Part shown: one piece after another, positions 10,110 through 37,413 of the stretch
Layout: each line of letters starts with the position of its first letter
How positions within the stretch are numbered: position 1 is the first letter of the stretch
Assembly (NCBI GenBank): GCA_037439645.1
Contig: JBBIVQ010000005.1
Span: 10,368-74,367, forward strand
Length of the DNA: 64,000 nucleotides
Source of the DNA: Deltaproteobacteria bacterium
Lineage (GTDB): Bacteria > Desulfobacterota > Deferrimicrobia > Deferrimicrobiales > Deferrimicrobiaceae
Direction: 5' to 3'
Made by a program: the position numbers and the translations under genes
Notes under the pieces: model-generated
Seen by the model: only the letters and a program-made list of their open reading frames with translations
What the model was told of the DNA's origin: nothing
Database searches by the model: none

Positions 10110-11558
10110 ATGGAAGACGCCGCGGGCCAGGTCAAAGGGTGGGTGGAACGGGAGTACCGCTGGGGGTTCGTCTCGGAGGTCGAGGCGGACACCGTCCCCA
10201 AGGGACTCAGCGAGGAGATCATCCGGGAGATCTCCGCGCGGAAGCAGGAGCCCGAATTCCTCCTCGAACGCCGCCTCAAGGCGTATCGCCACTGGCTTAC
10301 CATGGTCGAGCCGAAATGGTCCACGGTCTGCTATCACCCCATCGATTTCCAGGAGATCGCCTATTACTCGGCCCCGCGGGGGATGAAAGGGCGACCGAAA
10401 AACCTGGGCGAGGTGGACCCGGAGCTGCTTCGGACGTATGAGCGCCTGGGGATCCCTCTGCGGGAGCAGGAGGTCCTCGCGGGGGTCGCCGTGGATGCCG
10501 TCTTCGACAGCGTCTCCGTGGCCACGACGTACCAGGCGGAGCTGGCGAAGGTGGGGATCCTGTTCTGCTCCTTCTCCGAGGCGGTGCGGAAGTACCCCCG
10601 CCTCGTGGAGCGATACCTCGGGACCGTCGTCCCGTACAACGACAACTTCTTCGCCTCCCTCAACTCGGCCGTCTTCACCGACGGTTCGTTCTGCTACGTT
10701 CCGCCGGGGACGCGGTGCCCGGTGGAGCTGTCGACGTATTTCCGGATAAACGCGGAGAACACGGGACAGTTCGAGCGGACCCTCGTCATCGCGGACGCGG
10801 GCTCCTACGTGAGCTACCTCGAGGGGTGCACCGCGCCGCGCCGCGACACGAACCAGCTCCACGCGGCGGTGGTCGAACTGATCGCCCTCGATGATGCCGA
10901 GATCCGGTACGCCACGGTCCAGAACTGGTACCCGGGCGACAAGGAGGGGAAAGGCGGGATCTACAATTTCGTGACGAAACGGGGATTGTGCGCCGGGAAC
11001 AACTCCCGGATCTCCTGGACGCAGGTGGAGACCGGCTCGGCGATCACGTGGAAATATCCGAGCGTCATCCTCAAGGGGGACAACGCGGTCGGCCAATTCC
11101 ATGGGGTTGCGCTCACGAACAACTTCCAGCAGGCCGACACCGGCACGAAGATGACGCACATCGGGAAGAACACCCGGAGCACGATCGTGAACAAGGGGAT
11201 CTCCGCGGGCCGGGGGCAGAACACGTACCGGGGGCTGGTGAAGGTCCTCAAGACGGCGGAGAACGCACGCAACTTCACCCAGTGCGACTCGCTCCTCCTC
11301 GGGGACCGGTGCGGGGCGCACACGTTTCCGTACATCGAGGTGAAGAACCCGACCGCCCGGGTGGAGCACGAGGCGTCGACGTCGAAGATCGGGGAAGATC
11401 AGCTCTTCTATTGCCGGCAGCGCGGCCTTTCCCGGGAGGACGCGGTTTCGATGATCGTCAACGGATTCTGCCGCGAGGTGATCCGGAACCTTCCCATGGA
11501 GTTCGCGGTGGAGGCTCAAAAACTTCTCGAAATCAGCCTCGAAGGGAGCGTCGGATGA
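10110..11558 (+). CDS. sufB: Fe-S cluster assembly protein SufB
   Basis: The 482-aa protein carries the characteristic SufB sequence throughout, including the C-terminal [29 protein letters not shown]. Confidence 0.95.
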
Positions 11559-11572
11559 GGAACGGGAACCCC

Positions 11573-12346
11573 ATGCTGTCCATCGAAGGCCTGCACGCCG
11601 CGATCGGGGAGAAGGCGATCCTGCGCGGGGTGGACCTCGAAGTCCACGCGGGAGAAGTCCACGCCGTCATGGGCCCGAACGGATCGGGAAAGAGCACGCT
11701 GGCCAACGTCGTCGCGGGGCGCGAGGAGTACCGGGTGACGGCCGGTTCGATCCGTTACCAAGGGGTGGATCTCCTCGCGATGCCCCCGGAGGAGCGGGCA
11801 AGGGAAGGGATCTTCCTCGCCTTCCAGAACCCCGTGGAGATTCCCGGGGTGAGCAACCTCTACTTCCTGAAAGCGGCTTTGAACGCGGTGAGAAAGCACA
11901 GGGGGCTCCAGGAGCTCGACGTCGTGGAGTTCCGCGAGACGGTCCTCGATCGGCTTCACCGGGTCGGGATGGACGAAGACCTGTTGCGGCGGTCGGTGAA
12001 CGACGGGTTTTCGGGGGGGGAGAAGAAGCGGAACGAGATCCTTCAGCTGACGGTGCTCGATCCGAAGCTCGCGATCCTCGACGAGACGGACTCGGGCCTG
12101 GACATCGACGCACTGAAGGTCGTCGCCGCCGGCGTGAACGCCTCCCGCGATCCGGAACGGGCGATCGTCGTCGTGACCCATTACCAGCGGTTGCTGAACT
12201 ACATCGTGCCCGATTTCGTGCACGTCCTCGTCGAGGGAAGGATCGTGCGGTCCGGCGGCAGGGACCTTGCGTTCGAGCTCGAGGAGCGCGGGTACGGTTG
12301 GGTTCAACCGACGGCCGCCGGGAGCGGGGGGGAGGCACGCCCGTGA
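11573..12346 (+). CDS. sufC: Fe-S cluster assembly ATPase SufC
   Basis: MLSIEGLHAAIGEKAILRGVDLEVHAGEVHAVMGPNGSGKST matches the SufC N-terminus. A GAGGA Shine-Dalgarno precedes the ATG at 11573. An alternative ATG at 11555 would overlap the sufB stop (ATGA). Confidence 0.92.
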   Translation: MLSIEGLHAAIGEKAILRGVDLEVHAGEVHAVMGPNGSGKSTLANVVAGREEYRVTAGSIRYQGVDLLAMPPEERAREGIFLAFQNPVEIPGVSNLYFLKAALNAVRKHRGLQELDVVEFRETVLDRLHRVGMDEDLLRRSVNDGFSGGEKKRNEILQLTVLDPKLAILDETDSGLDIDALKVVAAGVNASRDPERAIVVVTHYQRLLNYIVPDFVHVLVEGRIVRSGGRDLAFELEERGYGWVQPTAAGSGGEARP

Positions 12347-24000: not shown

Positions 24001-24077
24001 GCGCCCTAGGGCGCGTCCGATAGAGCACTTGACTACGAATCAAGTGGCCAGAGGTTCGAATCCTCTAGGGCGCGCCA
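24001..24077 (+). tRNA. tRNA-Arg (anticodon ACG) with encoded CCA; D-arm is non-canonical (possible pseudo or atypical tRNA)
   Basis: Folded by hand: acceptor gcgccct/agggcgc, anticodon stem cttga/tcaag with loop cTACGaa (anticodon ACG), T-arm agagg-ttcgaat-cctct, discriminator G then CCA. The 5' end sits inside a perfect 22-bp palindrome, and there is an extra nucleotide before a weak D-stem. Confidence 0.6.
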
Positions 24078-24218
24078 TTCTCCCGTTTCCGCGGCATTGC
24101 GAGGATTCGAAGCGAGCCCGCCGCCGACCGATGAGGGAGGAAAAGCCGGCATGGATGCCGGCGTCAGGCGGGGGAGGGGAGGCTACGCAGCCGGAGCCAG
24201 GATGGCGGAGGCGTAGTA

Positions 24219-24240
24219 GCCGAATCCTCTAGGCGCGCCA
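24219..24240 (+). repeat. Direct repeat of the tRNA-Arg 3' end (20/21 nt identical to 24056-24077); att-like remnant
   Basis: gccgaatcctctaggcgcgcca matches ttcgaatcctctagggcgcgcca with one G deletion. It lies 143 bp downstream of the tRNA. Confidence 0.6.
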
Positions 24241-24355
24241 CTTTTTCCTTTTATAATCAACATCTTAGGTAGCGCCATTTTGGCGCTCCGCCCTTGGCGA
24301 TCTGTCCGGTTGCGCGGGGGTTGCGGTTTTTGCCGAACTTTTTTCCCGATCCAGA

Positions 24356-25747
24356 TCATCGGTGTGTGCTCTCTCCCTCCGCAAGGACCACCTTTTCCCG
24401 TTTCGCCAGGTCGAGCATCGCGGGGGTGAAGCCGCTGCGGCTGAACAGGACGAACCGTTCGTTTCTCTTGCCGGCGTGCCAATCCACCAGTTCCGATTTC
24501 CTGCGAAGGTCCTGGTATACGTCCGTTCCGACCTTTCTGTTGCTCCACTTGCACTCCCCGAACCAGATGGCGCGGGATTCCTCGTCGAGCGCAACCAGAT
24601 CGATCTCTTCGTTCTTCGCCCACCAGCGGCCGAGGGAGGTGACCGGTACGTTCTCCCGTCTGGCCATGTCAAGGAAGATCTCCCGGGAGATCGATTCGTA
24701 AGCATTGCCTACGTGCTGGTCGAATGTGGCCTCGATTTGCTTGAGGACGTAACCCTCGTTGCCGAGTTCCAATCTTCCCCGGTTCGGGAGGACGTACTTG
24801 AACCAAAAAGCGAAGAAGCGGTCGTGCAGTCGGTACAGGCCGAGTCGGCTCTTGTCGGGAGACTTCTCGGTGACGGGAACCTCCTTCTCGACAAACCCCA
24901 GACTCCTCAGAATGTCGAGGTAACGGGAGAGGTGTGCCTTGTCGAATCCCGTGTCGTTCATGATCTCGGAGAGCTTTCTCTTTCCTTGGGAGATGGCCCG
25001 GAGGATGACATAGTAATCCCGTGGTTCACGGAGTTCCTCACGCAGAAGGAATTCCACCTCGTTGTAGAGGAAGGTGTTCCGGGCAAGGATCAGCTCGGAG
25101 ATGTTTCGGAAGACGCTCTCGTGCGGCCGGACCTGCTCCAGGTAGGCCGGGACGGACCCGAAGGAGGAGTAGATGGCCGCGCGTTTTTTCAGGTCCGCCT
25201 CGGGGAAGAATTCCTTCAAGGCGCTGAATTTGAGCTCCTCGACCTTCAGGGAACCGGTCCGGCGGCCGTAAAGGGGAGCTTTCGAGAACAGGACTTCGCG
25301 CTCCATCATCCCGACGCTTGACCCGAGCAGTATCAGGAACAGCTTTGTGTCCTTCAGGTGCGTGTCGATTCCTTTTTGGAAAATGGAAGAGATTGCCCGG
25401 GCGGCACTCACAAGGTAGGGGAATTCATCGATGACGAGTACCAGGCGGGCCTTCGCGCTCTTTTCCCGGATGTAGCGGAAGAACTGCTCCCAGTCCCGGA
25501 AGCCCCCTTCGATCAGGATCCTGTCCTTGAAATATTCCCCGACGCATCTACCGAGGTTTTTCAGTTGCTCCACCTCGGCGACGGTATCCGCAAGGAAATA
25601 GGCGGCCGGCTTGTTCTGGATGAACTCACGGACGAGCCGGGTTTTGCCCACCCGGCGCCTGCCGTAGAGGGGGATGAACCGGAAAGACGGCTGTTCGAAT
25701 TCCCGCTCCAGGAACCCGAGTTCCTCCTGTCTGTCGACGAACCGCAT
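24356..25747 (-). CDS. ATP-binding protein of the 'archaeal-type ATPase' family (AAA+ P-loop N-terminal domain with a DUF234-like C-terminal domain)
   Basis: Walker A GRRRVGKT and Walker B LVLVIDEFPYL. Start was chosen at the internal MRFVDRQEELGFL. The upstream region is AT-rich with TATAAT-like boxes. Confidence 0.75.
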   Translation of the reverse strand: MRFVDRQEELGFLEREFEQPSFRFIPLYGRRRVGKTRLVREFIQNKPAAYFLADTVAEVEQLKNLGRCVGEYFKDRILIEGGFRDWEQFFRYIREKSAKARLVLVIDEFPYLVSAARAISSIFQKGIDTHLKDTKLFLILLGSSVGMMEREVLFSKAPLYGRRTGSLKVEELKFSALKEFFPEADLKKRAAIYSSFGSVPAYLEQVRPHESVFRNISELILARNTFLYNEVEFLLREELREPRDYYVILRAISQGKRKLSEIMNDTGFDKAHLSRYLDILRSLGFVEKEVPVTEKSPDKSRLGLYRLHDRFFAFWFKYVLPNRGRLELGNEGYVLKQIEATFDQHVGNAYESISREIFLDMARRENVPVTSLGRWWAKNEEIDLVALDEESRAIWFGECKWSNRKVGTDVYQDLRRKSELVDWHAGKRNERFVLFSRSGFTPAMLDLAKREKVVLAEGESTHR

Positions 25748-25918
25748 GGCTTCCTCCGATAAGGTGTCGATATGGATTGCGGTATGTATAATCCTGTTTA
25801 GTCTAAACATGATTATACTGATCCAGCGCGATCCTGCAATGGGTTGTTCGGGGTGAATTGCGCATGGTATGGCATAAGTTCGACAATATCGAACTATTAC
25901 CATGTATTGTCTATTTTG

Positions 25919-26119
25919 TTATTGGGCGGGGATGGCTATTTCTCTATTGGTATCAATGGCTTCCACATTGTGGGCGTCCACGTTCCACCCCGGGTCGTCG
26001 AGGGCGTTGACCGCCTTCCGGTTCGCGCCGGGGATCAGGTGTCCGTAGGTGTCCACGGTGATCTGGATGGAGTGGTGCCCGAGCTGCTCCTTGACGTAGA
26101 CCAGGGATTCTCCGTGGAA
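25919..26119 (-). pseudogene. Tyrosine recombinase/integrase C-terminal fragment (about 65 aa, catalytic-Tyr region only)
   Basis: The minus-strand translation GKTFHGESLVYVKEQLGHHSIQITVDTYGHLIPGANRKAVNALDD ends at the stop at 25919-25921. No N-terminal or core-binding domain is present upstream. Confidence 0.7.
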
Positions 26120-26370
26120 CGTTTTTCCGAAACGTACTCCTGTCGTTTTTGTTCGGCGAGCTGGGCTGCCTCATAATTGGCAACGGGTTTTCCCTTTTCA
26201 GCAAGTTCCTTCGCGATGATATCGGCGTTTACGAACGGCAAACCGCTTGGCGCAATGAACAGTTCATGAAACGTGGTCTTGCCGGCGCCGTTCGGCCCAG
26301 CCAGCACGACCAGAACGGGTTTTTTGTCCGATCCGGATGTCAGGAGTTTGCGCAGGGCCGGGACGATCAT
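26120..26370 (-). pseudogene. Zeta-toxin-like / P-loop kinase N-terminal fragment (about 83 aa), broken at the junction with the integrase fragment
   Basis: MIVPALRKLLTSGSDKKPVLVVLAGPNGAGKTTFHELF... matches a zeta-toxin-like start. After EYVSEKR the frame becomes low-complexity nonsense. The integrase homology starts in another frame at the same point. Confidence 0.55.
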
Positions 26371-26798
26371 CGAGCGGCACGAACCGGAGTTGGGGCGAAC
26401 ACTCCGTCCTTGACCCGTCCGGAAGCCCTGGTTCCGTCAGGCATTATACGGATCACCTTCCCTGGATGGGCCGGGTCGGCTTCGTACACGGGGACGCCGG
26501 GGGCGAGGATCTTTGCTTTCACTGCATCGCGGTCCGGGGTCAGCATGATCTGCGTCACCGTGGAGACGATTTTTGACTCGACACTTTGGGCGCTGACCTG
26601 CTTGAGAAAGAACGGAAGATTTTCCTTGAGAACCTTGACCTCTGCGTTCCCGAGGATTGCTTCCGCGGCCTGTCCGATCTTTACCCAATGCTCGACTTGG
26701 CCCGCCATGGACCGGTCCGATACCTGCGCCTCGCTCCTTACGTCACGGATGACCACCTGATCGGAAAGCTTTACCACCATCTGTTTTCCCGTCTGCAT
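26367..26798 (-). CDS. Hypothetical protein coupled to the zeta-like gene (ATGA overlap); possible antitoxin partner
   Basis: ATG at 26798 follows a GGGGGG Shine-Dalgarno. The stop overlaps the start of the zeta-like fragment. No recognisable DNA-binding motif. Confidence 0.5.
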   Translation of the reverse strand: MQTGKQMVVKLSDQVVIRDVRSEAQVSDRSMAGQVEHWVKIGQAAEAILGNAEVKVLKENLPFFLKQVSAQSVESKIVSTVTQIMLTPDRDAVKAKILAPGVPVYEADPAHPGKVIRIMPDGTRASGRVKDGVFAPTPVRAAR

Positions 26799-27027
26799 GA
26801 CACCCCCCCATGGGCGAGATTCGATTGAGCATCGAAGGTAACTAAATGCTACCATGCATTCTCAGTCGCAGCAAGGGGGGAGGAGCAGAAATGTACCCAG
26901 ACGGCAGGATTGGTCCAAATCGTAAACGATAAAAAGCCTCCTTTTGAACTTGTATTCAGCAGGGATTCCCGGAAGGTGGAGTTATCGGGCGACAGGAACT
27001 GTCGCATCGGTCCCGTATGCTCTTCAC

Positions 27028-27264
27028 ATGAAGACGGGTGACCAAGTGGTTATCACCCTGGTGTGCTTGGGGTGCCGCACGGAGCGGAGCATGCGGATCC
27101 CCCGCGAGCGTGGGATCACGCCCGGCAAGTACCTCTGGGAATGCTTCGCGTGGCAGGAGAAGCGGTACGGGGTATTGGGCAGCGGCTGTAAGAGGGATCC
27201 CGGAGTGGATCGGGCGCGTCCCGGCGGCCACGGGCAACCGGAAAACGGACAGGAGGAAGGATGA
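27028..27264 (+). CDS. Small Cys-containing hypothetical protein (about 78 aa)
   Basis: MKTGDQVVITLVCLGCRTERSMRIPRERGITPGKYLWECFAWQEKRYG. Its stop overlaps the start of the next gene (ATGA). The Shine-Dalgarno is weak. A TTG-start extension to 26944 is possible. Confidence 0.35.
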   Translation: MKTGDQVVITLVCLGCRTERSMRIPRERGITPGKYLWECFAWQEKRYGVLGSGCKRDPGVDRARPGGHGQPENGQEEG

Positions 27265-28205
27265 CCACGGAAAATCGCATGACCACGCTGGCGGACCTTA
27301 CGATCGGCAACCCGAAGACGGTTCTGAACCTGACGGCGGTCCCTCTCTCGGGGAATCCTGCCTCCACGCTCGACTACCTGCTGATCGACGAGGCCCTCGA
27401 GACGAAGAAGGTGATCGTCGAGGAGGTGAGCGAGGGCGGGTCGGTCCCGGAGCTGCGGATGACGAACTTCGCGAACCGGTGCGTCCTGATCGTCGACGGC
27501 ACGGAGCTGGTCGGCGCCAAGCAGAACCGGATCGTCAACGCGTCGTTCCTCATCCCGCAGGAGTCGGTCACGAGGATCCCCGTCTCCTGCGTGGAGCAGG
27601 GGCGATGGGGGTACAAGGGGCGGGAGTTCGGCGCGAGCAAGCACTTCTCGCCGCACAGGATCCGGCGGGACAACGCCGAGTTCCACAAGACCACCCTCAA
27701 GCAGAATCGCGGCTACGCCACCGAGCAGGGGAAGGTCTGGGAGCACGTGGCGAACATGTCCCACGAGATGGCAGCGCCCACGATGACCGGCGCAATGAAC
27801 GACGTCCTCGAGCAGCGGGAGGGCTCCATCGAGGAGTACCGGAAGGGGATCTCCCTGGACGGGGCCGGGACCGGGGCAGCCTTCTTCGTCAACGGGATCT
27901 TCCAGGGGATCGAGCTGTTCGACCGGGAGGCGACGTTCGCGAAGATGTTCCCCAAGCTCCTCTCCGGGGTCGCCGTGGAGGCGATGATGGCGCAGGGGCA
28001 AAAGCTTTCCGCCCGCCGGGCCAAGACCCCGGAAGAAACCATGAAGTACGTAAGTCGGATCCTGGCCGAGGTGTCGAAGTCGCTCTTCGAGAAGTTCGAG
28101 CCGGTGGGGATGGGCGAGGATTGGCGGTACGACGGGAAGCGATCGTTCGGGAAGGCGCTTCACTACGGCGCGGACCTCATTCACTTCTCTGCGTTCGGGA
28201 AATAA
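27261..28205 (+). CDS. Hypothetical protein (314 aa), no family confidently recognised
   Basis: A long ORF with coding-like composition, coupled to the upstream small ORF and followed by a strong terminator hairpin. The N-terminal region reads TVLNLTAVPLSG...LLIDEALETKKVIVEEVSEGGSVPEL. Confidence 0.65.
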   Translation: MTTENRMTTLADLTIGNPKTVLNLTAVPLSGNPASTLDYLLIDEALETKKVIVEEVSEGGSVPELRMTNFANRCVLIVDGTELVGAKQNRIVNASFLIPQESVTRIPVSCVEQGRWGYKGREFGASKHFSPHRIRRDNAEFHKTTLKQNRGYATEQGKVWEHVANMSHEMAAPTMTGAMNDVLEQREGSIEEYRKGISLDGAGTGAAFFVNGIFQGIELFDREATFAKMFPKLLSGVAVEAMMAQGQKLSARRAKTPEETMKYVSRILAEVSKSLFEKFEPVGMGEDWRYDGKRSFGKALHYGADLIHFSAFGK

Positions 28206-28220
28206 TCAGAGGGAAACAGG

Positions 28221-28249
28221 GGAGTGGGCCGTGAAATCGGCCCACTCCC
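28221..28249 (+). terminator. Intrinsic terminator hairpin (10-bp stem)
   Basis: ggagtgggcc-gtgaaatc-ggcccactcc followed by cggTTgaTT. Confidence 0.6.
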
Positions 28250-28319
28250 GGTTGATTCGGAAATAGAATGGGGGTCTACGGCTTCCGGGGGCCGAAGTCT
28301 CGCGCCATGGAGGAACAGG

Positions 28320-29270
28320 ATGGCGAAGGGGATTCCTCGTCCGATGAACAAGCCCGCCATGATGGATTGGGCGCTGCGGCTTCTGCGGTTGCTCAACGAA
28401 AAGAAAGTCCTCACCTCCCGGGTCGTGGCGGAGGCGTTCGACGTCAACATCCGCACCGCGCAGCGATACCTCCTGTACCTCTCCGACCTGCCGTGCGTGG
28501 TGGTCGACGAGGAGAAGCACACCTACACGCTCACCTCGGACTACATCATCACCGACAAGATCCTGAACACCTCCGAGATGGCCCTGGTGTGCGCCCTGAT
28601 CGACTACGCCACCCACATCTTCGGAAAGGAGCACTCGAAGTTCCTGGCGGGGCTGAAAAACAGGATCTTCCGGATGCCGGACGTCTACCAGATCGTCAAG
28701 GACGATGCGATCGACATGGAGAAGGTGGCCGGCGTCCAGTTGGCGCTGGAGCGGCACATCAAGAGCCGGGAGGTGATCTCCTTCCTCTACCGGCGTTCCG
28801 GGAAGCGGTACACGGTGGAGCCGTGCAAGATTCTCTACCACGGCGGGTTCTGGTACGTGGTGGCGATGCACGACGGGATCGTGAAGAAGTTCCTCCTCGA
28901 CGTCATCGAGGGAATCCGCGCCACGGGGCGGGCTTGCGGGGAGATCCCGGAGTCCGTCCGGAAGACGTTGTCGGATGCACAGAGTATCTGGTTCCAGGAC
29001 AAGGCGCCGGACCGGGTGACGGTGGAGTTCGACGCGGAGGTTGCCCACTTCTTCGAACGGAAGAGCATTTTCCCCCGCCAGGAGATCGTACGGAAAGGGA
29101 AGGACGGGAAGATCGTCGTCTCCTTCGACGTCCACAACGACATGGACTTCCGGGAGCACATCGCCCGCTGGATGCCGTATTTCAGGGTACAATCCCCCGA
29201 TTTTTACCGAGAATATTTCTGTAGGGTAACCCGTGAGGCTCTAGACAAGAACGTTTCAAGGGTAAATTGA
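28320..29270 (+). CDS. WYL-domain transcriptional regulator with N-terminal HTH
   Basis: HTH region MMDWALRLLRLLNEKKVLTSRVVAEAFDVNIRTAQRYLLYL and WYL core GGFWYVVAMHDGIVKKFLLDVIEG. A GGAGGA Shine-Dalgarno precedes the ATG at 28320. The upstream part of ORF 28224 was rejected. Confidence 0.8.
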   Translation: MAKGIPRPMNKPAMMDWALRLLRLLNEKKVLTSRVVAEAFDVNIRTAQRYLLYLSDLPCVVVDEEKHTYTLTSDYIITDKILNTSEMALVCALIDYATHIFGKEHSKFLAGLKNRIFRMPDVYQIVKDDAIDMEKVAGVQLALERHIKSREVISFLYRRSGKRYTVEPCKILYHGGFWYVVAMHDGIVKKFLLDVIEGIRATGRACGEIPESVRKTLSDAQSIWFQDKAPDRVTVEFDAEVAHFFERKSIFPRQEIVRKGKDGKIVVSFDVHNDMDFREHIARWMPYFRVQSPDFYREYFCRVTREALDKNVSRVN

Positions 29271-29342
29271 GAATATAGGTTTGTCGCCGAGGGCCCATGA
29301 TCCTCACCATTCATCGCGGATCGAAGCAGATCGGAGGGCATC

Positions 29343-29921
29343 GTGAGGAGAAGCGTCGAGGTGCCGGTGGGATTCCAGCTCCGGATCGAATTGAGGGAGG
29401 TCCTGCCGCCGGTCTGGCGGCGCTTCCTGGTCCCCGGGTCGATCACCCTCCCCGGCCTCCATCGCGTGATACAGGATGTCATGGGGTGGGAAAACAGCCA
29501 TCTCCACCTCTTCCGATTCGGAAAGAAGGAGTACGGGATTCCCGATCCCGAGTACCCCTCGGAGATGCGGAACGAACGGGGCAGGCGCCTGCGGGAATTT
29601 CTCCGCGACGAGGGGGAGACGTTCGGGTACCAGTACGACTTCGGCGACAACTGGGAGCATGACGTCGTTGTCGAGCGGATCGTGACCGGCGCCGAGGTGA
29701 CGGAGGCTACGTGCTTGGAGGGGGAGAGGGCTTGCCCGCCGGAGGATGTCGGAAGTCCCTCCGGGTACATGGAGTATCTGGAAGCCTTGAAGGATCCTTC
29801 CCATCCGGACCACCAGCAGATGGTGGAGTGGAGGGGTCCCTCGTTCGACCCCGAGCGGTTCGACCCGGGAAGGATCAACCGGCGGTTGTCCCTATTGTCC
29901 CGAAGGCGTCGGCGGGCGTAG
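29343..29921 (+). CDS. pRiA4b ORF-3-like (PRiA4_ORF3 / IS1096-TnpR-passenger family) protein
   Basis: FQLRIELREVLPPVWRRFLVPGSITLPGLHRVIQDVMGWENSHLHLF is a family motif. GTG start with a GGAGGG Shine-Dalgarno. Confidence 0.75.
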   Translation: MRRSVEVPVGFQLRIELREVLPPVWRRFLVPGSITLPGLHRVIQDVMGWENSHLHLFRFGKKEYGIPDPEYPSEMRNERGRRLREFLRDEGETFGYQYDFGDNWEHDVVVERIVTGAEVTEATCLEGERACPPEDVGSPSGYMEYLEALKDPSHPDHQQMVEWRGPSFDPERFDPGRINRRLSLLSRRRRRA

Positions 29922-30050
29922 ATGCCGGGCTACATGACAATAACGTCAAGTAAGGGAATTTAGTTAAGTTACCCATTCGATATCCCGCCTACTGTCAACG
30001 AAATGTCAACTAATGTCAAATGGCATTTAGAGAGTCTGAAAAGATATCGG

Positions 30051-30883
30051 TTATTCTTTTTTCGTCGCTGGAGGCAGATCTAACTTCTGAGCAACATCTG
30101 GCACGGCTACGAAATAGTAACGCCTGTTCATTTTTTTCTTGTTTAGATACCCCCTTTCCGCAAGGTCGAGTAAATCTGCGCTTGCCGTCGCCCGAACGAC
30201 GTTGTGAGAGTTTTTGTGGGATTCAATCGTGTACACCGCGTCCGCGTGTTTCACCGCATGCTGGAGAAGGGCAATTTGCCTGTAGTTCAGGTTGGGAACA
30301 TTGCGCAGCATGGCGATCGCTTTCCGCATTTCATCCTGTTTCCGTGCCAGATAATGGTGCAGCTCCTCAAGTGCCAAATGGATGGCCTTCAGGTGGTAAA
30401 CGAGGAAATACGTGACATCCCGGCCGTCAGTCTCCGCGTACAGATAAGCCTTGGCGTATTGCAGGACGGATTTCAGGATGATCCTGGAGATGCTCGAGTA
30501 CTCAAACATCCAGTAGTTGTGGGAAAGCATGTACCAATAGAAGACAGCCCGGGTCGTTCTCCCGTTCCCGTCCACATACGGATGTTCATAAGCAAGCCAG
30601 AAGTGGAGCAGGATGGCGCGGATCACCGGATGGATGAACGGCTCGTTGTCTTTGTCATTGGTCAGGGGACAAAGACGAAAGGGATATTTCGCGGCCGTTC
30701 AAGCCGGGATTGCGCGCGACTACACACCGATGGAGAAGATCTTTACCGTCGTGATCCGGAGGACTTTCCGAAAACGTGCTTGATCATCGGCTTGGTCTCA
30801 CCTTGGAGGAGTTCGATTTCCTCCTTGGAGAGGTGTATTCCTTCGATGGCCGCGGAGGACGTGACCGTCGTCACTACTCGCAT
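30051..30883 (-). pseudogene. Fic/Doc family protein, frameshifted
   Basis: The Fic motif HPYVDGNGRTTR is in one reading frame. The N-terminal Fic motif SSAAIEGIHLSKEEIELL is in a different reading frame. The first part stops at 30743, and the second opens just after a TGA near 30709. Confidence 0.7.
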
Positions 30884-31078
30884 GCAAGACTGACCGAACT
30901 TCTCGAGGAATTCGGTCTCGAACTCCGCATGCCGCATTCCCGGGCGATGGGACAGGGGCTTTTCGAGCTGCGACCGAGAGGGCGGGAAGGAATCGCAAGA
31001 GTTTTCTACTGCACGAGAGTCGGACGGAGGATCGTCATCCTTCACTCGTTCGTGAAGAGAACGGACAAGACGCCGTAG
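30884..31078 (+). pseudogene. Gp49/HigB-like (RelE/ParE superfamily) toxin, N-terminally truncated
   Basis: LTELLEEFGLELRMPHSRAMGQGLFELRPRGREGIARVFYCTRVGRRIVILHSFVKRTDKTP matches the C-terminal two-thirds of this toxin family. Homology starts exactly where the opposite-strand Fic N-terminal fragment ends. The listed ORF start at 30776 would give a non-homologous N-terminus. Confidence 0.6.
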
Positions 31079-31114
31079 GGAACTCGACATCGCCCGGGCT
31101 CGGCAAAAAGAGGT

Positions 31115-31312
31115 ATGCAGGCCATGAAGAGACAAGCACCGACCAGGACGCACCGTCAGATGGTCGCAGCGTGGAAAAAGGATCCCGAATTCCAGGTGGC
31201 GTACGACGAGCTTGATACGGAGTTCGCCCTGCTGCGCCAGTTGCTCGCCGCGAGGATGAGAGCCATTATGTTCTTGCTCTTGGATTACGAATATCGTAAT
31301 GTGCTTGCGTAG
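31115..31312 (+). pseudogene. HigA-like HTH antitoxin, N-terminal fragment truncated by the downstream AbiE insertion
   Basis: RQMVAAWKKDPEFQVAYDELDTEFALLRQLLAARMRA matches the HigA N-terminus. The HTH core is missing. A 17-bp palindrome attacgaatatcgtaat sits at the break. Confidence 0.45.
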
Positions 31313-31996
31313 ATGCAGAGCCTTACTGAGAAAGTACTCAAGCTGGCGCCTCCTGGCGGGTTGTTCGATGAGACGGTCATCCACAACCTGTTTCCGGACA
31401 TCGGTATCGGCGCGCGCGGCCTGTTGGTGCATCGGGCATGTAAAGCGGGTGAAATCCTGCGCCTGAAACCCGGGCTATTCGTGCTCGGCCAGCCGTATCG
31501 GAGGTCCGAGCCGCACCCTTTCGTGGTGGCGGCCATGCTGCACGCCCCGTCCCACATCAGCCTGGAATCCGCCTTGGCGTATCACGGTCTGATCCCCGAG
31601 GCGGTCTACCAGGTGAGCAGCGTCACGGTCGGGCGCAGCAGGGAGTTCTCCACGCCGCTGGGGGTGTTCAACTTCCGCAGGGTGCCGGCGCGCGCGCCGC
31701 GTGCGGGGGTCGAGGCGGTGGCGGTCACGCGCAGCGCCTGGGCGTTTGTCGCCTCGCCCCTGCGCGCCATCGCCGACAAGGTCTATCTCAACAAGGAGAT
31801 CACCTGGAATCGCAACGGTCCCGGTTACCTGACGGAGTCGCTACGCATCGAGGAGGACGATCTGCGGTCGCTCTCCTTCGAAGCGCTGGACGAGATTCTG
31901 GACAGCATCCGCAGCCGGCGCGTGCAGGCATACCTCGCGGGGTTGAAAGGAGCGGTCGGCAATGCTGGAGAGGGTGTTGAGCGCAAGAATCCGTGA
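31313..31996 (+). CDS. abiEi: AbiEi antitoxin (type IV TA / abortive infection system, N-terminal wHTH)
   Basis: The domain pattern matches AbiEi. The gene lies directly upstream of, and overlapping, the AbiEii gene. Confidence 0.8.
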   Translation: MQSLTEKVLKLAPPGGLFDETVIHNLFPDIGIGARGLLVHRACKAGEILRLKPGLFVLGQPYRRSEPHPFVVAAMLHAPSHISLESALAYHGLIPEAVYQVSSVTVGRSREFSTPLGVFNFRRVPARAPRAGVEAVAVTRSAWAFVASPLRAIADKVYLNKEITWNRNGPGYLTESLRIEEDDLRSLSFEALDEILDSIRSRRVQAYLAGLKGAVGNAGEGVERKNP

Positions 31997-32828
31997 CTAC
32001 GCGCCGACGAACAGCGTGGAGCAGGAAAATGTGCTGCAGGAAATCATGCAACACTACGTATTGTCCAGCCTCTCGCGTGCGGGCCTGTTCGCGGAGGCCA
32101 TGTTTCACGGAGGCACTTGCCTGCGCATCGTTTACGGGATGAACCGGTTCTCGGAAGACCTGGATTTCCTTCTCAAACGGCCCGATCCGGATTTCCGCTG
32201 GCAGGGCTACCTGGAGTCTGTTCGAAAGGACTGCGAGGGGGAAGGCATCCCTTTCGAGGTGCAGGACAAGTCCCAGGCCGGAACGGCCGTTCAGAAGGCG
32301 TTCCTGAAGACCGACTCCATCGGCAAGATTCTGGAGTTGGACCTGCCGTTCGAGCGGCATCAAGCCCGGAAGATACGCATCAAGTTGGAGATCGACATCG
32401 ATCCTCCCGCCGGCTCGACGTTTACGACCAGCTACATCACGTTCCCCGTGACGGCGCCGATGACGACGCAGTCCCTCGAATCGGGTTTCGCCCTGAAACT
32501 GCACGCCTTGCTCTGCCGTTCCTACGTCAAAGGACGGGACTGGTTCGACTTCGTGTGGTATGTCGCCCGCAAGACCGCGCCCGATCCGGATCTGCTGAGC
32601 CAGGCATTGCGCCAGCAGGGGCCTTGGGCCGGACAACCGATAGCTGTGACCGGGCAATGGGTGCGGGATAACATGGAGGCGACGATCCGGCGCATTGATT
32701 GGTCCGCGGCTCGAGACGACGTTCAGCGCTTTCTGCCCCTGCGCGAGCAGGAGGGACTTCGCGCGTGGAGTGCCGACTTTTTCCTTCACCACCTCGAGCG
32801 CATGAACGACATTTCCCTCCCGAAATGA
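31962..32828 (+). CDS. abiEii: AbiEii/AbiGii-family nucleotidyltransferase toxin
   Basis: MFHGGTCLRIVYGMNRFSEDLDFL is the nucleotidyltransferase motif. Starts inside the 3' end of abiEi. Confidence 0.85.
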   Translation: MLERVLSARIRDYAPTNSVEQENVLQEIMQHYVLSSLSRAGLFAEAMFHGGTCLRIVYGMNRFSEDLDFLLKRPDPDFRWQGYLESVRKDCEGEGIPFEVQDKSQAGTAVQKAFLKTDSIGKILELDLPFERHQARKIRIKLEIDIDPPAGSTFTTSYITFPVTAPMTTQSLESGFALKLHALLCRSYVKGRDWFDFVWYVARKTAPDPDLLSQALRQQGPWAGQPIAVTGQWVRDNMEATIRRIDWSAARDDVQRFLPLREQEGLRAWSADFFLHHLERMNDISLPK

Positions 32829-33094
32829 TTTCGGCCGGACCCGACAGGAATTCCCTTTTTCTGCTCGTCGCGGCCGGGGGGAGGACGATCCTTCCGGCCG
32901 TCGTCTTTTCGAAGTCCGGTCGCCGAACAGGCTTCCCGAGCCGATCCGTTCACCGCGACCCGGCTCGTCGATTCCCCGGACCATGTAAAGCCCCAGGCGC
33001 AACGCATCCGACGAACGCTTCGGAAGAAACTTCCCCGAGCCCTTCCCGCTTGGCGCCGGTACCGGATGCGTGACTGGGGGAAGTGAGTGGAACG

Positions 33095-33300
33095 ATGAGG
33101 AGAACGAATTTCGACCGGTATCTGGAAGAGCAACTGCGGGATCCCTCGTTTGCCGCCCGTTTCGAGCGCGCCGGCGAGGCGTGGGATGTGGCGATGCATA
33201 TCGCCGCTCTTCGGCGGCGGGCCGGGCTCTCACAGAAAGACCTCGCGAAGCTTCTCAAGACCTCCCAGCAGCAGATCAGCCGCTTGGAGTCCCCCGGCGC
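33095..33300 (+). pseudogene. HTH-XRE (HigA-like) antitoxin fragment; HTH is present but the C-terminus is replaced
   Basis: FDRYLEEQLRDPSFAARFERAGEAWDVAMHIAALRRRAGLSQKDLAKLLKTSQQQISRLE. Beyond this the ORF continues only as the reverse strand of the next gene. The full 239-aa ORF 33083..33802 was rejected. Confidence 0.45.
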
Positions 33301-33337
33301 TTCGGGGAATGGAATACCCGTCAGCGGTCACATGCCT

Positions 33338-33705
33338 TCAACGCTTCGCGGCCTGCAGGGCGACCATCCCCTTGATCGCCTCGATGGCCTCTTCCGTGGT
33401 CTTGTTCCGGATGTCGAGGGAGGCCAGGCGCGACCGGTCGAACCCGGCTGCGTCGAGCGCGTCCCGGAGCATCTTCGCCTGCATCTGCGGGTCGCACGCG
33501 GCGATGTACAGAGTGTCCGTATCCCTCCCCGCGAGCAGGACCTTGAGGAATTCCTCCCCGTCCCCTACGCAGAGCTGCGGGTGCAGGCACACGTAGTCGA
33601 AGATCTTCTCCCGGCGGACGTCGGCGAGCACGTTGAAGATGTCCATCTTCTTGAAGCTCGGGCAGGTTCCCTGGCAGTTGCAGAGAATGAATCCTTTTTC
33701 CCCAT
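33338..33705 (-). pseudogene. MvhD/FlpD-like (hydrogenase delta-subunit family) small Fe-S protein; the ATG with a perfect AAGGAG SD is in one reading frame and the conserved Cys-rich body is in another, switching at an A5 run
   Basis: ATG at 33705 with AAGGAG at a 6-nt spacing gives MGKK, then the A5 run at 33695-33699. The conserved protein GFILCNCQGTCPSF-KKMDIFNVLADV...LYIAACDPQ...RSRLASLDIRNKTTEE aligns by eye to MvhD (ILCNWCAYAGADLAG ... GCHIGDCHY ... RLRLEWVSASE). Confidence 0.5.
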
Positions 33706-33875
33706 GGCGAACTCCTTTCCATTAATCGTTACATCTACATATATAGATATTATGCCCGGGAAAGCGGAAAAGATCAACGATAATTTCGACACGGATTATT
33801 AGCGACGAGCGCACAAGGTTAGACGGAGGATCGGGAGGAATAAGCGTTTGAGAGGATTGGAGGAGTATCGCCCTG

Positions 33876-34346
33876 TTATATTTCCTTCCCGTGGCCGAAG
33901 AGGACCTTCAGGCGGCGGAGGAGTTCGTCGCGAACGGATCGGAACGCATCGAGGCGGGTTTCCTCCGTGCCGGTGATGGCCGCCGGGTCGGGAAGCGCCC
34001 AGTGGGCACGGTGCGCCTTCCCGAGGAATACGGGGCAGACCTCCTCGGCGCAGAGGGTGATCACGGCGTCGACGGACCCGGCGTCGATGGAATCCAGCCC
34101 TTTGGATCGGTGATCGGAGATATCGAAGCCGATCTCCTTGAGGACCCGGATCGCCTCCGGGCGGACGGAGGAGGGGGCAGACCCGGCGGAACTGATGTGT
34201 AAGCCTTCCGGAGCGAGAAAACGTGCGATCCCTTCGGCCATCTGACTGCGGGCTGAGTTCGCGACGCAAAGGAACAAAATGTGCCTCGGGCGCTTCGCCC
34301 GCAGGGCCTCCGCCTCGGCCCTCCACTCTTCCTGTCGAGCACTCAC
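33876..34346 (-). CDS. arsC: Arsenate reductase ArsC (LMW-PTP/thioredoxin-coupled type)
   Basis: HILFLCVANSARSQMAEG is the CX5R P-loop. GTG start at 34346 overlaps the arsR stop (GTGA). The long N-terminal extension of ORF 33876..34760 was rejected. Confidence 0.8.
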   Translation of the reverse strand: MSARQEEWRAEAEALRAKRPRHILFLCVANSARSQMAEGIARFLAPEGLHISSAGSAPSSVRPEAIRVLKEIGFDISDHRSKGLDSIDAGSVDAVITLCAEEVCPVFLGKAHRAHWALPDPAAITGTEETRLDAFRSVRDELLRRLKVLFGHGKEI

Positions 34347-34744
34347 CGCTTCGCCGCCCTGCGCTGCCTTCCGGTAAGGGTCATGTTCCTCTCGCAGATC
34401 CCGATGGGGCCGATCGACCTCGCCAGGACCGACCGTTCGCGGTCCTTGGCGATCACGGGATCGTCGTTCAGCCATCCCTGGAGATTTCGCAGCATCCGGC
34501 CCGCGAACGGAGAGTCGGTCCTGCGGTCCAGCGAATAGTAGACCCATTTCCGGTCCCGCCGGTCCTTGATGAGTCCCGCCCCCCGGAGGAGGAAGAGGTG
34601 CTTCGAAACGGTGGACTGTCCGAGGGAGAGGATCGCGATCACCTGGCATACGCACATCTCCCCGCCTTCGAGGATCTTGAGGATCCGTACACGGGTTGGA
34701 TCCGCGGCGGCCTTCAGCACGGTCTCGTAATCGCGCAGCCCCAT
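34343..34744 (-). CDS. arsR: ArsR/SmtB-family arsenite-responsive repressor
   Basis: LKAAADPTRVRILKIL...GEMCVCQVIAIL contains the metal-binding Cys pair in the HTH. Confidence 0.85.
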   Translation of the reverse strand: MGLRDYETVLKAAADPTRVRILKILEGGEMCVCQVIAILSLGQSTVSKHLFLLRGAGLIKDRRDRKWVYYSLDRRTDSPFAGRMLRNLQGWLNDDPVIAKDRERSVLARSIGPIGICERNMTLTGRQRRAAKR

Positions 34745-34763
34745 GTGTGCCTTCCACCATATC

Positions 34764-34781
34764 GTCAATTAACGAATTGAC
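34764..34781. promoter_or_regulatory. Perfect inverted repeat GTCAATT-AACG-AATTGAC upstream of arsR (candidate ArsR operator); a second palindrome CCCGGA-ATA-TCCGGG sits at 34829-34843 nearer arsD
   Basis: Both palindromes lie in the 120-bp divergent arsR/arsD intergenic region. Confidence 0.4.
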
Positions 34782-34866
34782 ATTCCGTACCCGTGAAGCG
34801 ATAATGCGACAGGTACATATTACACGTTCCCGGAATATCCGGGCAAGGAGGCGGATCTTGAGAAAG

Positions 34867-35157
34867 ATGGAAATCTACGAGCCGCCGCTGTGCTGTCCGA
34901 CCGGGGTGTGCGGCCCAGCGCCCGATCCCGCCCTGGCGAAGCTCCAGGAGGACATCCTCCGGTGGAAAAAGGTGGGAGTCGCGGTGGAGCGGCTCGCGAT
35001 CAACCAGGTGCCGCAGCGGTTCATGTCCAATCCGACGGTGGTCGACCTGCTGACCCGGGAGGGACAGGAGGTCCTTCCGGTCGCGCTGCTCGACGGGAAG
35101 GTTGTCTGCAAGGGGAAATACCCGACGTACGACCAGGTCACCCGGGAGGGTATGTAA
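34867..35157 (+). CDS. arsD: Arsenical resistance metallochaperone/repressor ArsD
   Basis: MEIYEPPLCCPTGVCGP matches the ArsD N-terminal Cys motif. An AAGGAGG Shine-Dalgarno lies upstream. Confidence 0.85.
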   Translation: MEIYEPPLCCPTGVCGPAPDPALAKLQEDILRWKKVGVAVERLAINQVPQRFMSNPTVVDLLTREGQEVLPVALLDGKVVCKGKYPTYDQVTREGM

Positions 35158-35222
35158 GTGCACCCTCTCGAAATAATATCGACGTTCCCGGTGCTTCAAT
35201 CGATTTGCGAGAGGGTACACTG

Positions 35223-35405
35223 ATGCCTACGTACGCCTACCTGTGCCGCGCCTGCGGCCGACCGTTCGAGATCAACATGTCCATTCGGGAGAAAGAAACG
35301 TGGAAACCCCGCTGCCCGGTGTGCGGCAGCGCGAAGGTCGAACAGCATCTGTTCGGATTCTCTTTCGGGGGGACCGGTGGCGGGCAACCCGCCCCCGGCG
35401 GGTGA
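35223..35405 (+). CDS. FmdB-family zinc-ribbon protein (60 aa) embedded between arsD and arsA
   Basis: MPTYAYLCRACGRPFEINMSI...PRCPVCGSAKVEQ has two CxxC pairs typical of FmdB. Confidence 0.6.
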   Translation: MPTYAYLCRACGRPFEINMSIREKETWKPRCPVCGSAKVEQHLFGFSFGGTGGGQPAPGG

Positions 35406-35488
35406 TGCCCCCCCGGCCGCGGCGGTCGCTGCGGGTGAGATGGGCAATACCGAAACGACGAATCCCGAAAAATGAGGGGTTGCCGACC

Positions 35489-37413
35489 ATGCACAAATAC
35501 ACGTTCTTTTCCGGCAAGGGGGGGGTGGGAAAGACCACCCTTGCGGCGGCCACGGCCTTGCGTACCGCGGCGTCGGGGAAGCGGACCCTGATCGTCTCCA
35601 CCGACCCGGCCAGCAACCTGGCCGACGTCTTCGAGCGCCCCATCGGGAACCGGGTCACGGAGATCGCTCCGAACCTGTTCGCGCTCGAGATCGATCCGGA
35701 TTCCGCCACGAAGGAGTATAGGGAGCGCGCGCTGGCGCCTTTGCGCGCCATCCTTCCGCCGGACGCCATGAAGGTTCTCGAGGAGCAGTTCCGGAGCGCC
35801 TGCACCGTCGAGATCGCCTCGTTCGACCGGTTCACCGATTTCCTCGGGGACACGGCGTTCGACCACGTCGTCTTCGACACCGCGCCCACGGGCCACACGC
35901 TTCGCCTGCTCGAGTTGCCGGTGGACTGGTCCCGCCACATAGAAGAAGCCGCGCGGGGGAACGGCCAGACGTGCATCGGCCCGGTCGCCTCCCTGCAGGG
36001 GGCCAAGGCGAAGTACGACCACGCCATCGCCGCGCTTCGGGATCCCGGGGAGACGGAGTTCACGCTGGTCTGCCGTCCGGAACGGACCTCCGTGGACGAG
36101 CTGCTCCGGGCCCGGGAAGAGCTCCGGACGCTCGGGATCGGAAATTTCCGCATCGTGCTGAACGGGGTGATCCCGGCCGGGGCGGGGGGGCCGTTCGCGA
36201 CCCTGTCCACGTCCCAGCGGGAGCAGGACCGCCGTCTTTCCGCGAAGCTCGACCGGCCCTGCATCGAGGTGCCCCTTCAGGGAGGGGAAGTGAAGGGGCT
36301 TTCCGCGATAGGGAGGTTCGCGGCGATCGCGTTCGACGGGAAGAGGGATTTTCTCCACGGCGGGTTCACGGGCACCCGTCCTTTCACGGGGTTCTCTACC
36401 CCGCACATCCTGAGGGAAATGGTGACCTCCGGCGATGGCCATGGACGGCCAAGTGCCGAGGCGGGCAGGGATGCCCCCGGTTCGGTGGTAGCCTCGGCCA
36501 GCCGGACGGTCGTCCTGACCGGCAAGGGAGGGGTCGGGAAAACCGTCACGGCGTGCGCGCTTGCGGCGCGTCTCGCGCGGGAGGGGAAACGGGTCCTCCT
36601 GGCGACCACCGACCCGGCGGCGCACATCGGGTCGGTCCTTTCGGCGGAGGTATCGAGCCGGGTTCGCCCCGTCCCGGGCTACTCCGGGCTCTTCGCCGTC
36701 CGGATCGACCAGAAGGAAAGCGTCGAAGCGTACAAGGCGAAGATCCTCTCCCAGGCGGCCGCGTCCGGCCACACCGGAGAGATGCTCGCCGTGGTCAAGG
36801 AGGAGCTGGAATCCCCCTGCACGGAGGAGATGGCGGTCTTCGAGGAGTTCTCGGGCCTGGTGGAGCGGGACGATTTCGACGCAGTGATCCTCGACACCGC
36901 CCCCACGGGGCACACGTTGCGCCTCCTCGAGCTGCCGTACGACTACGCCCGCCAGGTCGAGATGATGGTGGCCGTCCGGAAGGACGACGCCGGGGCGTCC
37001 GGCGCCAGGGGGAAGCTCGACGCGCTCGTCCGGCGCCTGAAGGATCCGGAGGCAACGACGTTTCTCCTCGTGATCTACCCGGAGTACACCCCGATCTTCG
37101 AGGCGAAACGGGCCGCGGAAGACCTGAAGGAATCCGGCATCGAGGTCCAGGGCGTCATCGCCAATTTCCTCCTCGACGAGGACGACTGCTCGTCTCCCTT
37201 CTCCCTGTCGCGGTACTTCATGCAGCAGCACTATCTCAAGGTGGCCGAGGAGACGTTCCGGCTGCCGATCTTCAAGGTGCCCATGCTGCCGTCGGAGCCC
37301 GCGGGCGCGGAGGCTCTGTGCACGGTGGGCAGGAAGTTGCTCGGTGAGCCGATGGCGAACATGATCTCCGTGATGGGGATGATGATGGGGGGCAGGGGCG
37401 GGGGCTGCTGCGG

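Follow-up and report, generated by a model that had tools for sequence, protein, structure and literature searches.

A probably decayed electron-transfer operon with a frameshifted HdrA-N-like gene in an arsenic island of a Deferrimicrobiaceae bacterium

Arsenic-resistance (ars) operons can carry their own source of reducing power: ArsTX, a thioredoxin reductase with its thioredoxin, is a dedicated reductant supply for thioredoxin-type arsenate reductase (ArsC). The ArsEFG proteins are said to form a detoxification system for organoarsenicals, and a reductase system of this type needs an electron supply. How electrons are fed into arsenic detoxification in anaerobes, whether for ArsEF-type reduction, for thioredoxin-dependent ArsC or for iron-sulfur (Fe-S) repair under arsenite, is poorly defined. 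Among known electron-transfer proteins, the heterodisulfide reductase subunit HdrA carries in its N-terminal domain a [4Fe-4S] cluster whose ligands are the domain's own cysteines and Cys197 of a partner subunit (PMC9012536), and which lies on a low-potential branch that leads electrons toward an inserted ferredoxin domain (PMC9012536, PMC13518236). Here we describe a 64,000-nucleotide stretch of a Deltaproteobacteria bacterium of the family Deferrimicrobiaceae (GCA_037439645.1, contig JBBIVQ010000005.1, positions 10,368 to 74,367 of the forward strand; hereafter the window), in which a minus-strand gene downstream of arsR-arsC would encode a stand-alone relative of the HdrA N-terminal domain, with its start codon out of frame with the rest of the gene. 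We think it probable that the frameshift is genuine and that the gene, inactivated not long ago, is what remains of an Fe-S electron-transfer operon in an arsenic island.

A start codon out of frame with the cysteine-rich body

On the minus strand, an AAGGAG Shine-Dalgarno (SD) sequence precedes an ATG by six nucleotides (nt), and direct reading from that ATG gives ATG GGG AAA AAG GAT TCA..., which translates as MGKKDSFSATAR... The cysteine-rich body of the gene, GFILCNCQGTCPSF...LYIAACDPQ... (in a longer reading of its start, GFILCNCQGTCPSFKKMDIF...LYIAACDPQMQ...), begins with GGA at 33694 in another frame, next to an A5 run at 33699-33695 (Table 1). Between the upstream TAA of the body frame and this GGA (TGG AAA GGA GTT CGC CAT GGG GAA AAA) there is no ATG, GTG or TTG, and the first in-frame start available to the body is Met21 at 33646. 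Adding one base, either A or G, at 33693-33699 restores MGKKGFILCNCQGTCPSF, and with an inserted A the protein reads MGKKGFILCNC... The first-pass annotation of this DNA, made from the sequence alone, had described an AAGGAG-N6-ATG that opens MGKK out of frame with the cysteine-rich body, had placed the offset at the A5 run and had noted that a single inserted A would rejoin the two parts. Each of these points was borne out by direct reading and translation, with the addition that an inserted G would serve equally.

Comparison with related loci places the missing base at the third position of Lys codon 4. The relative L006 (87% identical) reads GTG GGG AAA AAA GGA TTC at this point, and four metagenome contigs (83% identical) read ATG GGG AAA AAG GGA TTC; the base lost from AAAAA(A/G)GG could equally have been A or G, since either repair encodes Lys4-Gly5. 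The intact MGKKGF-type homologues that the first-pass annotation suggested looking for were found. In 89 of 89 related loci, drawn from genomes and metagenomes, the start is in frame, 4-7 codons ahead of the first cysteine, and the N-terminus follows the motif M-x-K-K-G-[FL]-x-L-C-x-C-Q-G-x-C-P-S-F, which leaves the window as the sole exception. With more than 230 homologues of the repaired protein, and an in-frame start at each of the 89 loci retrieved, the offset is a lesion and not a chance pattern.

The deposited assembly calls a 102-amino-acid (aa) open reading frame (ORF) from the internal Met21 (P0016), and no longer ORF in the body frame begins with ATG. That it is a genuine functional protein seems to us barely credible: it would lack the invariant Cys9, Cys11 and Cys15, direct reading finds no SD before Met21, and Met21 is an invariant internal residue at which the protein starts in none of the 89 related loci. 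Homologues that begin at the internal methionine without the cysteine motif, the observation that would have spoken against the first-pass view of the start, were thus absent from this set.

A functional use of the offset is also conceivable, with low or switchable expression of MGKKGF... arising from a -1 ribosomal slip on G AAA AAG or from slippage-driven phase variation. A -1 shift on AAG, with the Lys-tRNA moving from AAG to AAA, would produce precisely the N-terminus typical of the family; the SD of the gene stands 12 nt upstream of the site; and A6-A9 runs at the same position in many relatives indicate that the site is mutable. The AAA AAG pair is similar to the 3' part of the slippery site in dnaX of E. 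coli, and a 12-nt spacing from the SD falls within the range that stimulates -1 shifts. However, the heptamer departs from the canonical X XXY YYZ by the G before AAA; on direct reading, a slip from AAG to AAA would be favourable in the A site, but in the P site re-pairing would be with GAA. Folding of the 85 nt downstream is no more stable than that of shuffled sequences (minimum free energy -23.6 against a mean of -23.0 kcal/mol, z = -0.17), an Rfam scan finds no element at the site, and no shift is required in any of the 89 related loci. Efficient slippage during transcription or replication needs a longer run than A5, and the partner genes of the operon have been deleted anyway (see below). 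We regard a functional frame change as highly improbable.

The protein family and its gene neighbourhoods

Homologues of the repaired protein are nearly all 119-120 aa long and begin M-[GAS]-K-K-G-[FL]-x-L-C-x-C-Q-G-T-C-P-S-F, with invariant cysteines at positions 9, 11, 15, 46 and 71. The body encoded in the window keeps every invariant column of the family alignment and is 91% identical to the family member P0001. No Pfam or NCBIfam model represents this 119-aa family, and its only source label is 'heterodisulfide reductase subunit A-like'. The NCBIfam HdrA models give a weak but collinear match over positions 7-103 (NF041778, E=5.5e-5), scoring about 21 bits against cut-offs of 1100-1400. 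A family profile built from 56 members matches solved HdrA chains over residues ~5-113 (9sfi_A, E=4.8e-4; 5odc_A, E=5e-3; 7bkb_A, residues 11-106). We obtained an AlphaFold2 model from the family alignment (pLDDT 90.3, pTM 0.86), and a Foldseek search of the PDB with this model returned only seven significant matches, all of them HdrA chains (probability 1.00, TMq 0.71-0.77), with a root-mean-square deviation of ~3 A over ~124 columns for the HdrA chains of 5odc, 5odi, 7bkb and 8rvy. Cys9, Cys11, Cys46 and Cys71 align with HdrA cysteines, and Cys15 aligns with an isoleucine in the HdrA of 7bkb.

Because the NCBIfam, PDB-profile, model and Foldseek matches all point to HdrA, we assign the protein as a free-standing homologue of the HdrA N-terminal [4Fe-4S] domain. 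By analogy with that domain the protein would bind an Fe-S cluster, and it is a reasonable inference from the alignment that Cys15 could substitute for the Cys197 supplied to HdrA in trans, making the small protein self-sufficient. A role as an As(III)-binding metallochaperone, with the C-x-C-x3-C motif acting like the CCxxxxC of ArsD, seems less likely because of the cysteine alignment with HdrA and the invariant ferredoxin partner described below.

The first-pass annotation had likened the protein to MvhD/FlpD, and this proved imprecise. A search of the repaired protein against Pfam-A (hmmscan, E<=1) gives no PF02662 match and only a spurious HTH_Card1; the family profile against PDB sequences at E<=10 gives HdrA chains and no MvhD chain; and no MvhD fold is among the Foldseek top 50, though 5ODC-type entries also contain Mvh subunits. 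Membership in bona fide HdrA was likewise rejected, since family members have 119-120 aa against ~650 aa, carry no FAD/thioredoxin-reductase or ferredoxin domains and have no hdrBC nearby. No hydrogenase or Hdr genes are present in any neighbourhood examined.

To describe these neighbourhoods we counted genes within 4 kb of the gene in 87 non-redundant loci (the frame check above covers 89). A gene for a 2x[4Fe-4S] ferredoxin (70-95 aa, same strand) is present in 85 of the 87 and directly adjacent in 77 of those 85. It lies downstream of the gene in Geobacterales/Desulfuromonadales and upstream in Omnitrophota, Anaerolineae, Thermotogota, Spirochaetota and Thermoanaerobacterium. Beyond this pair, the surroundings are arsenic islands with arsR, arsC, acr3, arsA/arsD, an ArsM-like methyltransferase, an ArsP_1 permease, CMD, DGC and radical-SAM/SPASM genes. 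Recurrent neighbours include members of the MTH895/ArsE thioredoxin-like family (TIGR00412, 104 bits; cut-off 62), the ArsF family (NF040494, 117-124 bits; cut-off 60) and the ArsG transporter family (NF040495, 281-293 bits; cut-off 200), and a sufC-sufBD-like pair is found in 13 loci. None of the probed genes was seen in 18 loci, many of them on short contigs.

The arsenic context had struck the first-pass annotation as unusual for an electron carrier. On these neighbourhoods it is instead the norm for the 119-aa HdrA-N-like family, which typically sits in ArsR-controlled arsenic islands across at least six phyla. We found no literature linking HdrA-like proteins with ars operons or with ArsEFG, in a search that did not cover the primary ArsEFG description.

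The arsenate-respiring Geobacter sp. OR-1 (NZ_BAZF01000002.1) has two copies of the gene (L007 and L010), at ~229.5 kb and 243 kb and thus ~13 kb apart; one copy is followed by sufC-sufBD and then the ferredoxin gene (fer4), and the other adjoins arsD/arsA genes, with no adjacent fer4 detected.

Operon deletions and the origin of the frameshift

The nearest relatives of the window locus, L001 (92% protein identity), L005, L006 and L002, share the order arsR/arsC-gene-fer4-sufC-sufBD, in which the sufC-like gene matches TIGR01978 at 146 bits and the next gene is sufB/D/SmsB-like. BLASTN alignment of the window with L001, L005 and L006 gave the same breakpoints three times. Homology runs through the gene to ~33358, skips 270 bp containing the ferredoxin gene, resumes for 86 bp and ends in all relatives at 33291, where sufC should start. 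Comparison with L001 (6320-6400 and 6610-6760) shows a TCGCCC microhomology shared by both endpoints of the 270-bp deletion, which is in frame. The window protein ends ...GMVA-LQAAKR-stop, the L001 ferredoxin ...ERIA-LQAAKR-stop and homologues of the gene ...GMVAQAA-stop; the in-frame microhomology deletion therefore means that the tail LQAAKR and the stop codon at 33338-33340 are those of the ferredoxin. Neither fer4, the sufC/sufBD partners nor arsEFG genes occur elsewhere in the 64-kb window, which is the part of the genome covered by this analysis. At 11256-12256 (plus strand), next to a short sufB/D-like match, stands a gene for a distant sufC-like ATPase that shares 32% identity with the SufC-like protein of L001. 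This is probably the housekeeping suf locus, as opposed to the lost genes moved to a new place.

The first-pass annotation had missed that the ferredoxin gene is deleted, that the 3' end of the gene is fused to ferredoxin codons and that sufC-sufBD are gone, as alignment with the relatives indicates. With these losses in view, the frameshift is to be re-read as operon decay and no longer as a possible regulatory device. Two further independent structural lesions in the same operon, of a kind that base-calling cannot produce, and the loss of an obligate-looking ferredoxin partner gene lead us to favour a genuine mutation. The promoter, inverted repeat, SD and all invariant residues remain intact, as would be expected if the event were recent.

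If the frameshift were instead an assembly or sequencing error, the real gene would have one more A or G and encode an intact 122-aa protein with a ferredoxin-derived tail, expressed from the conserved promoter and possibly working with a ferredoxin encoded elsewhere. A single-base lesion in a homopolymeric context is the classic error type, and the intact promoter, SD and invariant residues, together with the lack of a significant nonsynonymous excess, suit this explanation as well; the frameshifted allele is recorded only in the assembly itself, where P0016 forms a single-member cluster on one contig. However, none of the ~300 other homopolymer runs of at least 5 nt in the window breaks up a long coding ORF, which gives no visible sign of an error-prone assembly, and neither the 270-bp deletion nor the loss of sufCB could be a base-calling error. 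The clean runs and the two structural lesions make a chance error in exactly this gene improbable, and we regard this explanation as unlikely, though far from negligible.

Several points weigh against our preferred reading of a genuine, recent inactivation. A one-base consensus error is possible in the A5GG context. No second assembly with the frameshifted allele was found; the four JGI metagenome matches are all in frame and come from a different species at 83% identity. There is no significant relaxation of selection in the gene body: the ratio of nonsynonymous (N) to synonymous (S) rates is 0.37 for the comparison with L001 and 0.10-0.15 between intact relatives, but the polarised counts for the window lineage are only 4N:2S, indistinguishable from those of arsC (11:9) and arsR (12:15). 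The need for an adjacent ferredoxin, finally, is inferred from co-occurrence only, and a ferredoxin encoded elsewhere in the genome could substitute.

Upstream, profile matches to arsR and arsC bear out the first-pass placement of the gene downstream of both on the same strand; arsD, arsA and acr3 are transcribed divergently from arsR-arsC. The gene has a sigma-70-like promoter of its own, and the inverted repeat that overlaps it, with half-sites ATATCTAT-N-ATGTAGATGT, is a candidate operator to which a regulator would bind. Three further observations concern this part of the island. A 60-aa CxxC...CxxC zinc-ribbon ORF (MPTYAYLCRACGRPF..., 35223-35405, plus strand) lies between arsD and arsA; a Zn_ribbon_8 gene of 60 aa occupies the same place in L001, which makes this a conserved small gene of the ars operon. 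Between arsC and the HdrA-N-like gene, L001 carries a PIN_3 toxin gene and a 61-aa ORF on the opposite strand (5192-5795), which marks the interval between the two genes as a toxin-antitoxin insertion hotspot in the lineage of the window. Nucleotide identity of the window to L001 across 33291-37029 is a mosaic (94% for arsD-arsA, 84% for arsR-arsC and 90% for the HdrA-N-like gene), which suggests recombination among arsenic islands.

Past the breakpoint at 33291 follow a truncated XRE-type gene, toxin-antitoxin and defence genes (Table 1) and a Fic fragment. The ~9 kb of 24078-33290 have a GC content of 0.52-0.61, compared with 0.63-0.69 in the flanks, and a tRNA-Arg gene stands at their far end. 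On this composition and gene content, the 33291 junction resembles the scar of a deletion or recombination event at the border of an acquired toxin-antitoxin/defence island. No integrase was seen in 24078-33290, no att-like repeat of the tRNA-Arg was found near the 33291 breakpoint, the genes that follow sufBD in the relatives are not in the window, and there is no tRNA-Arg in the region downstream of sufBD in the relatives. A 13-nt direct repeat of the 3' part of the tRNA-Arg, CGAATCCTCTAGG, stands at 24221-24233, ~150 bp downstream of that gene; it may be either the remains of a small element's att site or a coincidental match. The Fic/DOC ORF at 30051-30626 (minus strand) matches only positions 62-92 of the 93-position Fic profile, with its residues 2-32; the gene appears to be N-terminally truncated, which would be another sign of decay in the island. 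Elsewhere in the window, six homopolymer sites flagged as candidate further frameshifts proved to be ordinary gene junctions.

Table 1. Coordinates of the features discussed (positions in the window)
Feature	Position	Strand	Details
arsR, ArsR/SmtB-family repressor	34343-34768	-	PF01022; NF033788 84.9 bits (cut-off 55)
arsC, LMW-PTP/thioredoxin-coupled arsenate reductase	33876-34340	-	PF01451 E=7.6e-19; TIGR02691 110 bits, below cut-off
Sigma-70-like promoter	33749-33777	-	TTGATC-17 nt-CATAAT; hexamers conserved in six loci
Imperfect inverted repeat	33731-33750	-	ATATCTATATATGTAGATGT; conserved; overlaps -10 element and transcription start
Shine-Dalgarno AAGGAG	33712-33717	-	6-nt spacer before ATG; GAAAGGAGTTCGCC block kept in relatives
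ATG start codon	33703-33705	-	conserved in homologues; out of frame with gene body here
1-nt deletion site	33693-33699	-	AAAAAGG in window; AAAAAAGG in L006, AAAAAGGG in L090-L093
Frame opened by ATG	33565-33705	-	46-codon out-of-frame peptide MGKKDSFSATAREPARASRRW...; ends at TAG 33567-33565
Conserved body Gly5-Ala116	33359-33694	-	-1 (= +2) frame relative to ATG; carries Cys9, Cys11, Cys15, Cys46, Cys71
102-aa ORF from Met21	33338-33646	-	called in deposited assembly (P0016); lacks three of five invariant Cys
TCGCCC microhomology	33359-33364	-	junction of 270-bp deletion
Last six codons and stop (LQAAKR-stop)	33338-33358	-	from deleted ferredoxin 3' end, fused in frame
Resumed homology, 86 bp	33291-33376	-	fer4 3' end and fer4-sufC spacer; identity 90.7% (L001), 80.2% (L005), 81.4% (L006)
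Truncated XRE-type HTH gene	33083-33292	+	abuts breakpoint; HTH_3 match stops at profile position 31 of 55
AbiEii	31962-32828
AbiEi-like ORF	31313-31996		upstream of AbiEii
Gp49/HigB-like toxin	30776-31078
PRiA4_ORF3	29343-29921
WYL/WCX regulator	28224-29270
ARPP-1	27261-28205
ATPase_2/DUF234 protein	24356-25903
tRNA-Arg(ACG)	24001-24077		far end of low-GC island

A proposed module and its likeness to described systems

The frameshift in itself is of little importance. It is best read as an annotation issue: the locus is a pseudogene, or else its coding sequence has been mis-called as a 102-aa ORF that starts at an internal methionine. The main value of the locus lies in pointing to an uncurated, widely conserved HdrA-N-like/ferredoxin pair in arsenic islands, carried by Geobacterales, Omnitrophota, Anaerolineae, Thermotogota, Spirochaetota and Thermoanaerobacterium. 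It is a concrete candidate for the electron feed to arsenic detoxification in anaerobes, and cultured carriers include Geobacter sp. OR-1, Geomobilimonas luticola, Thermanaerothrix solaris and Thermoanaerobacterium thermosulfurigenes DSM 2229.

In its intact ancestral form, the 119-aa protein would have acted with the adjacent 2x[4Fe-4S] ferredoxin, a partner that it appears to need, judging from gene co-occurrence. The small protein would bind one [4Fe-4S] cluster and together with the ferredoxin may form a short low-potential electron wire, in effect a detached version of the HdrA branch that runs from the N-terminal domain to ferredoxin. We tentatively propose that the pair is a hitherto undescribed electron-input module, shared across phyla by the arsenic islands of anaerobes, placed under ArsR-type control and feeding arsenic-linked redox partners. 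Its candidate recipients would be the ArsE/ArsF reductase system, thioredoxin-type ArsC or a SufBC-like Fe-S assembly machine for arsenic stress. They may differ by lineage, with ArsE/ArsF-type proteins in most, the divergent SufBC-like pair in the clade of the window and possibly thioredoxin-type ArsC; supplying reductant to ArsC is, by analogy, one option among several. The ancestral order in the lineage of the window would have been arsR-arsC, then the gene with its own promoter, fer4, sufC and the sufB/D-like gene. A 1-nt deletion at codon 4 would have uncoupled the SD and ATG from the cysteine-rich body. The ferredoxin gene was taken out by a 270-bp in-frame microhomology deletion, which joined its last six codons to the HdrA-N-like gene, and sufC-sufBD were lost at the junction with the toxin-antitoxin/defence island. 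If the module reading is true, the window shows one lineage losing its electron-input module.

Of the described systems, MvhD/FlpD (PF02662), the [2Fe-2S] delta subunit of methyl-viologen-reducing hydrogenase, is likewise a small cysteine-rich alpha/beta electron-transfer protein tied to Hdr, and it bridges the hydrogenase to HdrA. A structural relationship between MvhD and the HdrA N-terminal domain has been described, but the family matches neither PF02662 nor MvhD chains in sequence or fold. ArsTX, as redox-supply genes under arsenic control beside an LMW-PTP-type ArsC, offers the analogy that underlies the first-pass idea of an alternative reductant for ArsC. The HdrA-N-like/ferredoxin pair has no homology to ArsTX, and ArsC neighbours it in only about a quarter of loci. 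The association with ArsEFG is wider, and besides the ferredoxin gene these families supply the commonest neighbours: the pair lies within 4 kb of ArsE-, ArsF- or ArsG-family genes in 53 of 87 loci, mostly on the same strand, although the HdrA-N-like protein is itself none of the three and the window lacks these genes. Where the pair is followed by a SufC-like ATPase and a SufB/SufD/SmsB-like protein (13 of 87 loci), the arrangement recalls SufBC and the minimal SUF-like SmsCB system, but these neighbours score below curated cut-offs, as divergent paralogues would, and are absent from most family loci.

The closest likeness in fold is to the HdrA N-terminal domain (residues ~1-135; PDB 5ODC/5ODH, 7BKB, 9SFI and 8RVY), which is collinear with the family over ~100 residues. 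Unlike HdrA, the family protein stands alone at 119 aa, without the FAD/thioredoxin-reductase domain, the ferredoxin domains or HdrBC partners, and has the extra invariant Cys15; it is found in bacterial arsenic islands, whereas HdrA belongs to methanogenesis or bifurcation clusters. In HdrA, electrons pass from the cluster to the ferredoxin domain, and the parallel in this family is the invariant ferredoxin partner gene.

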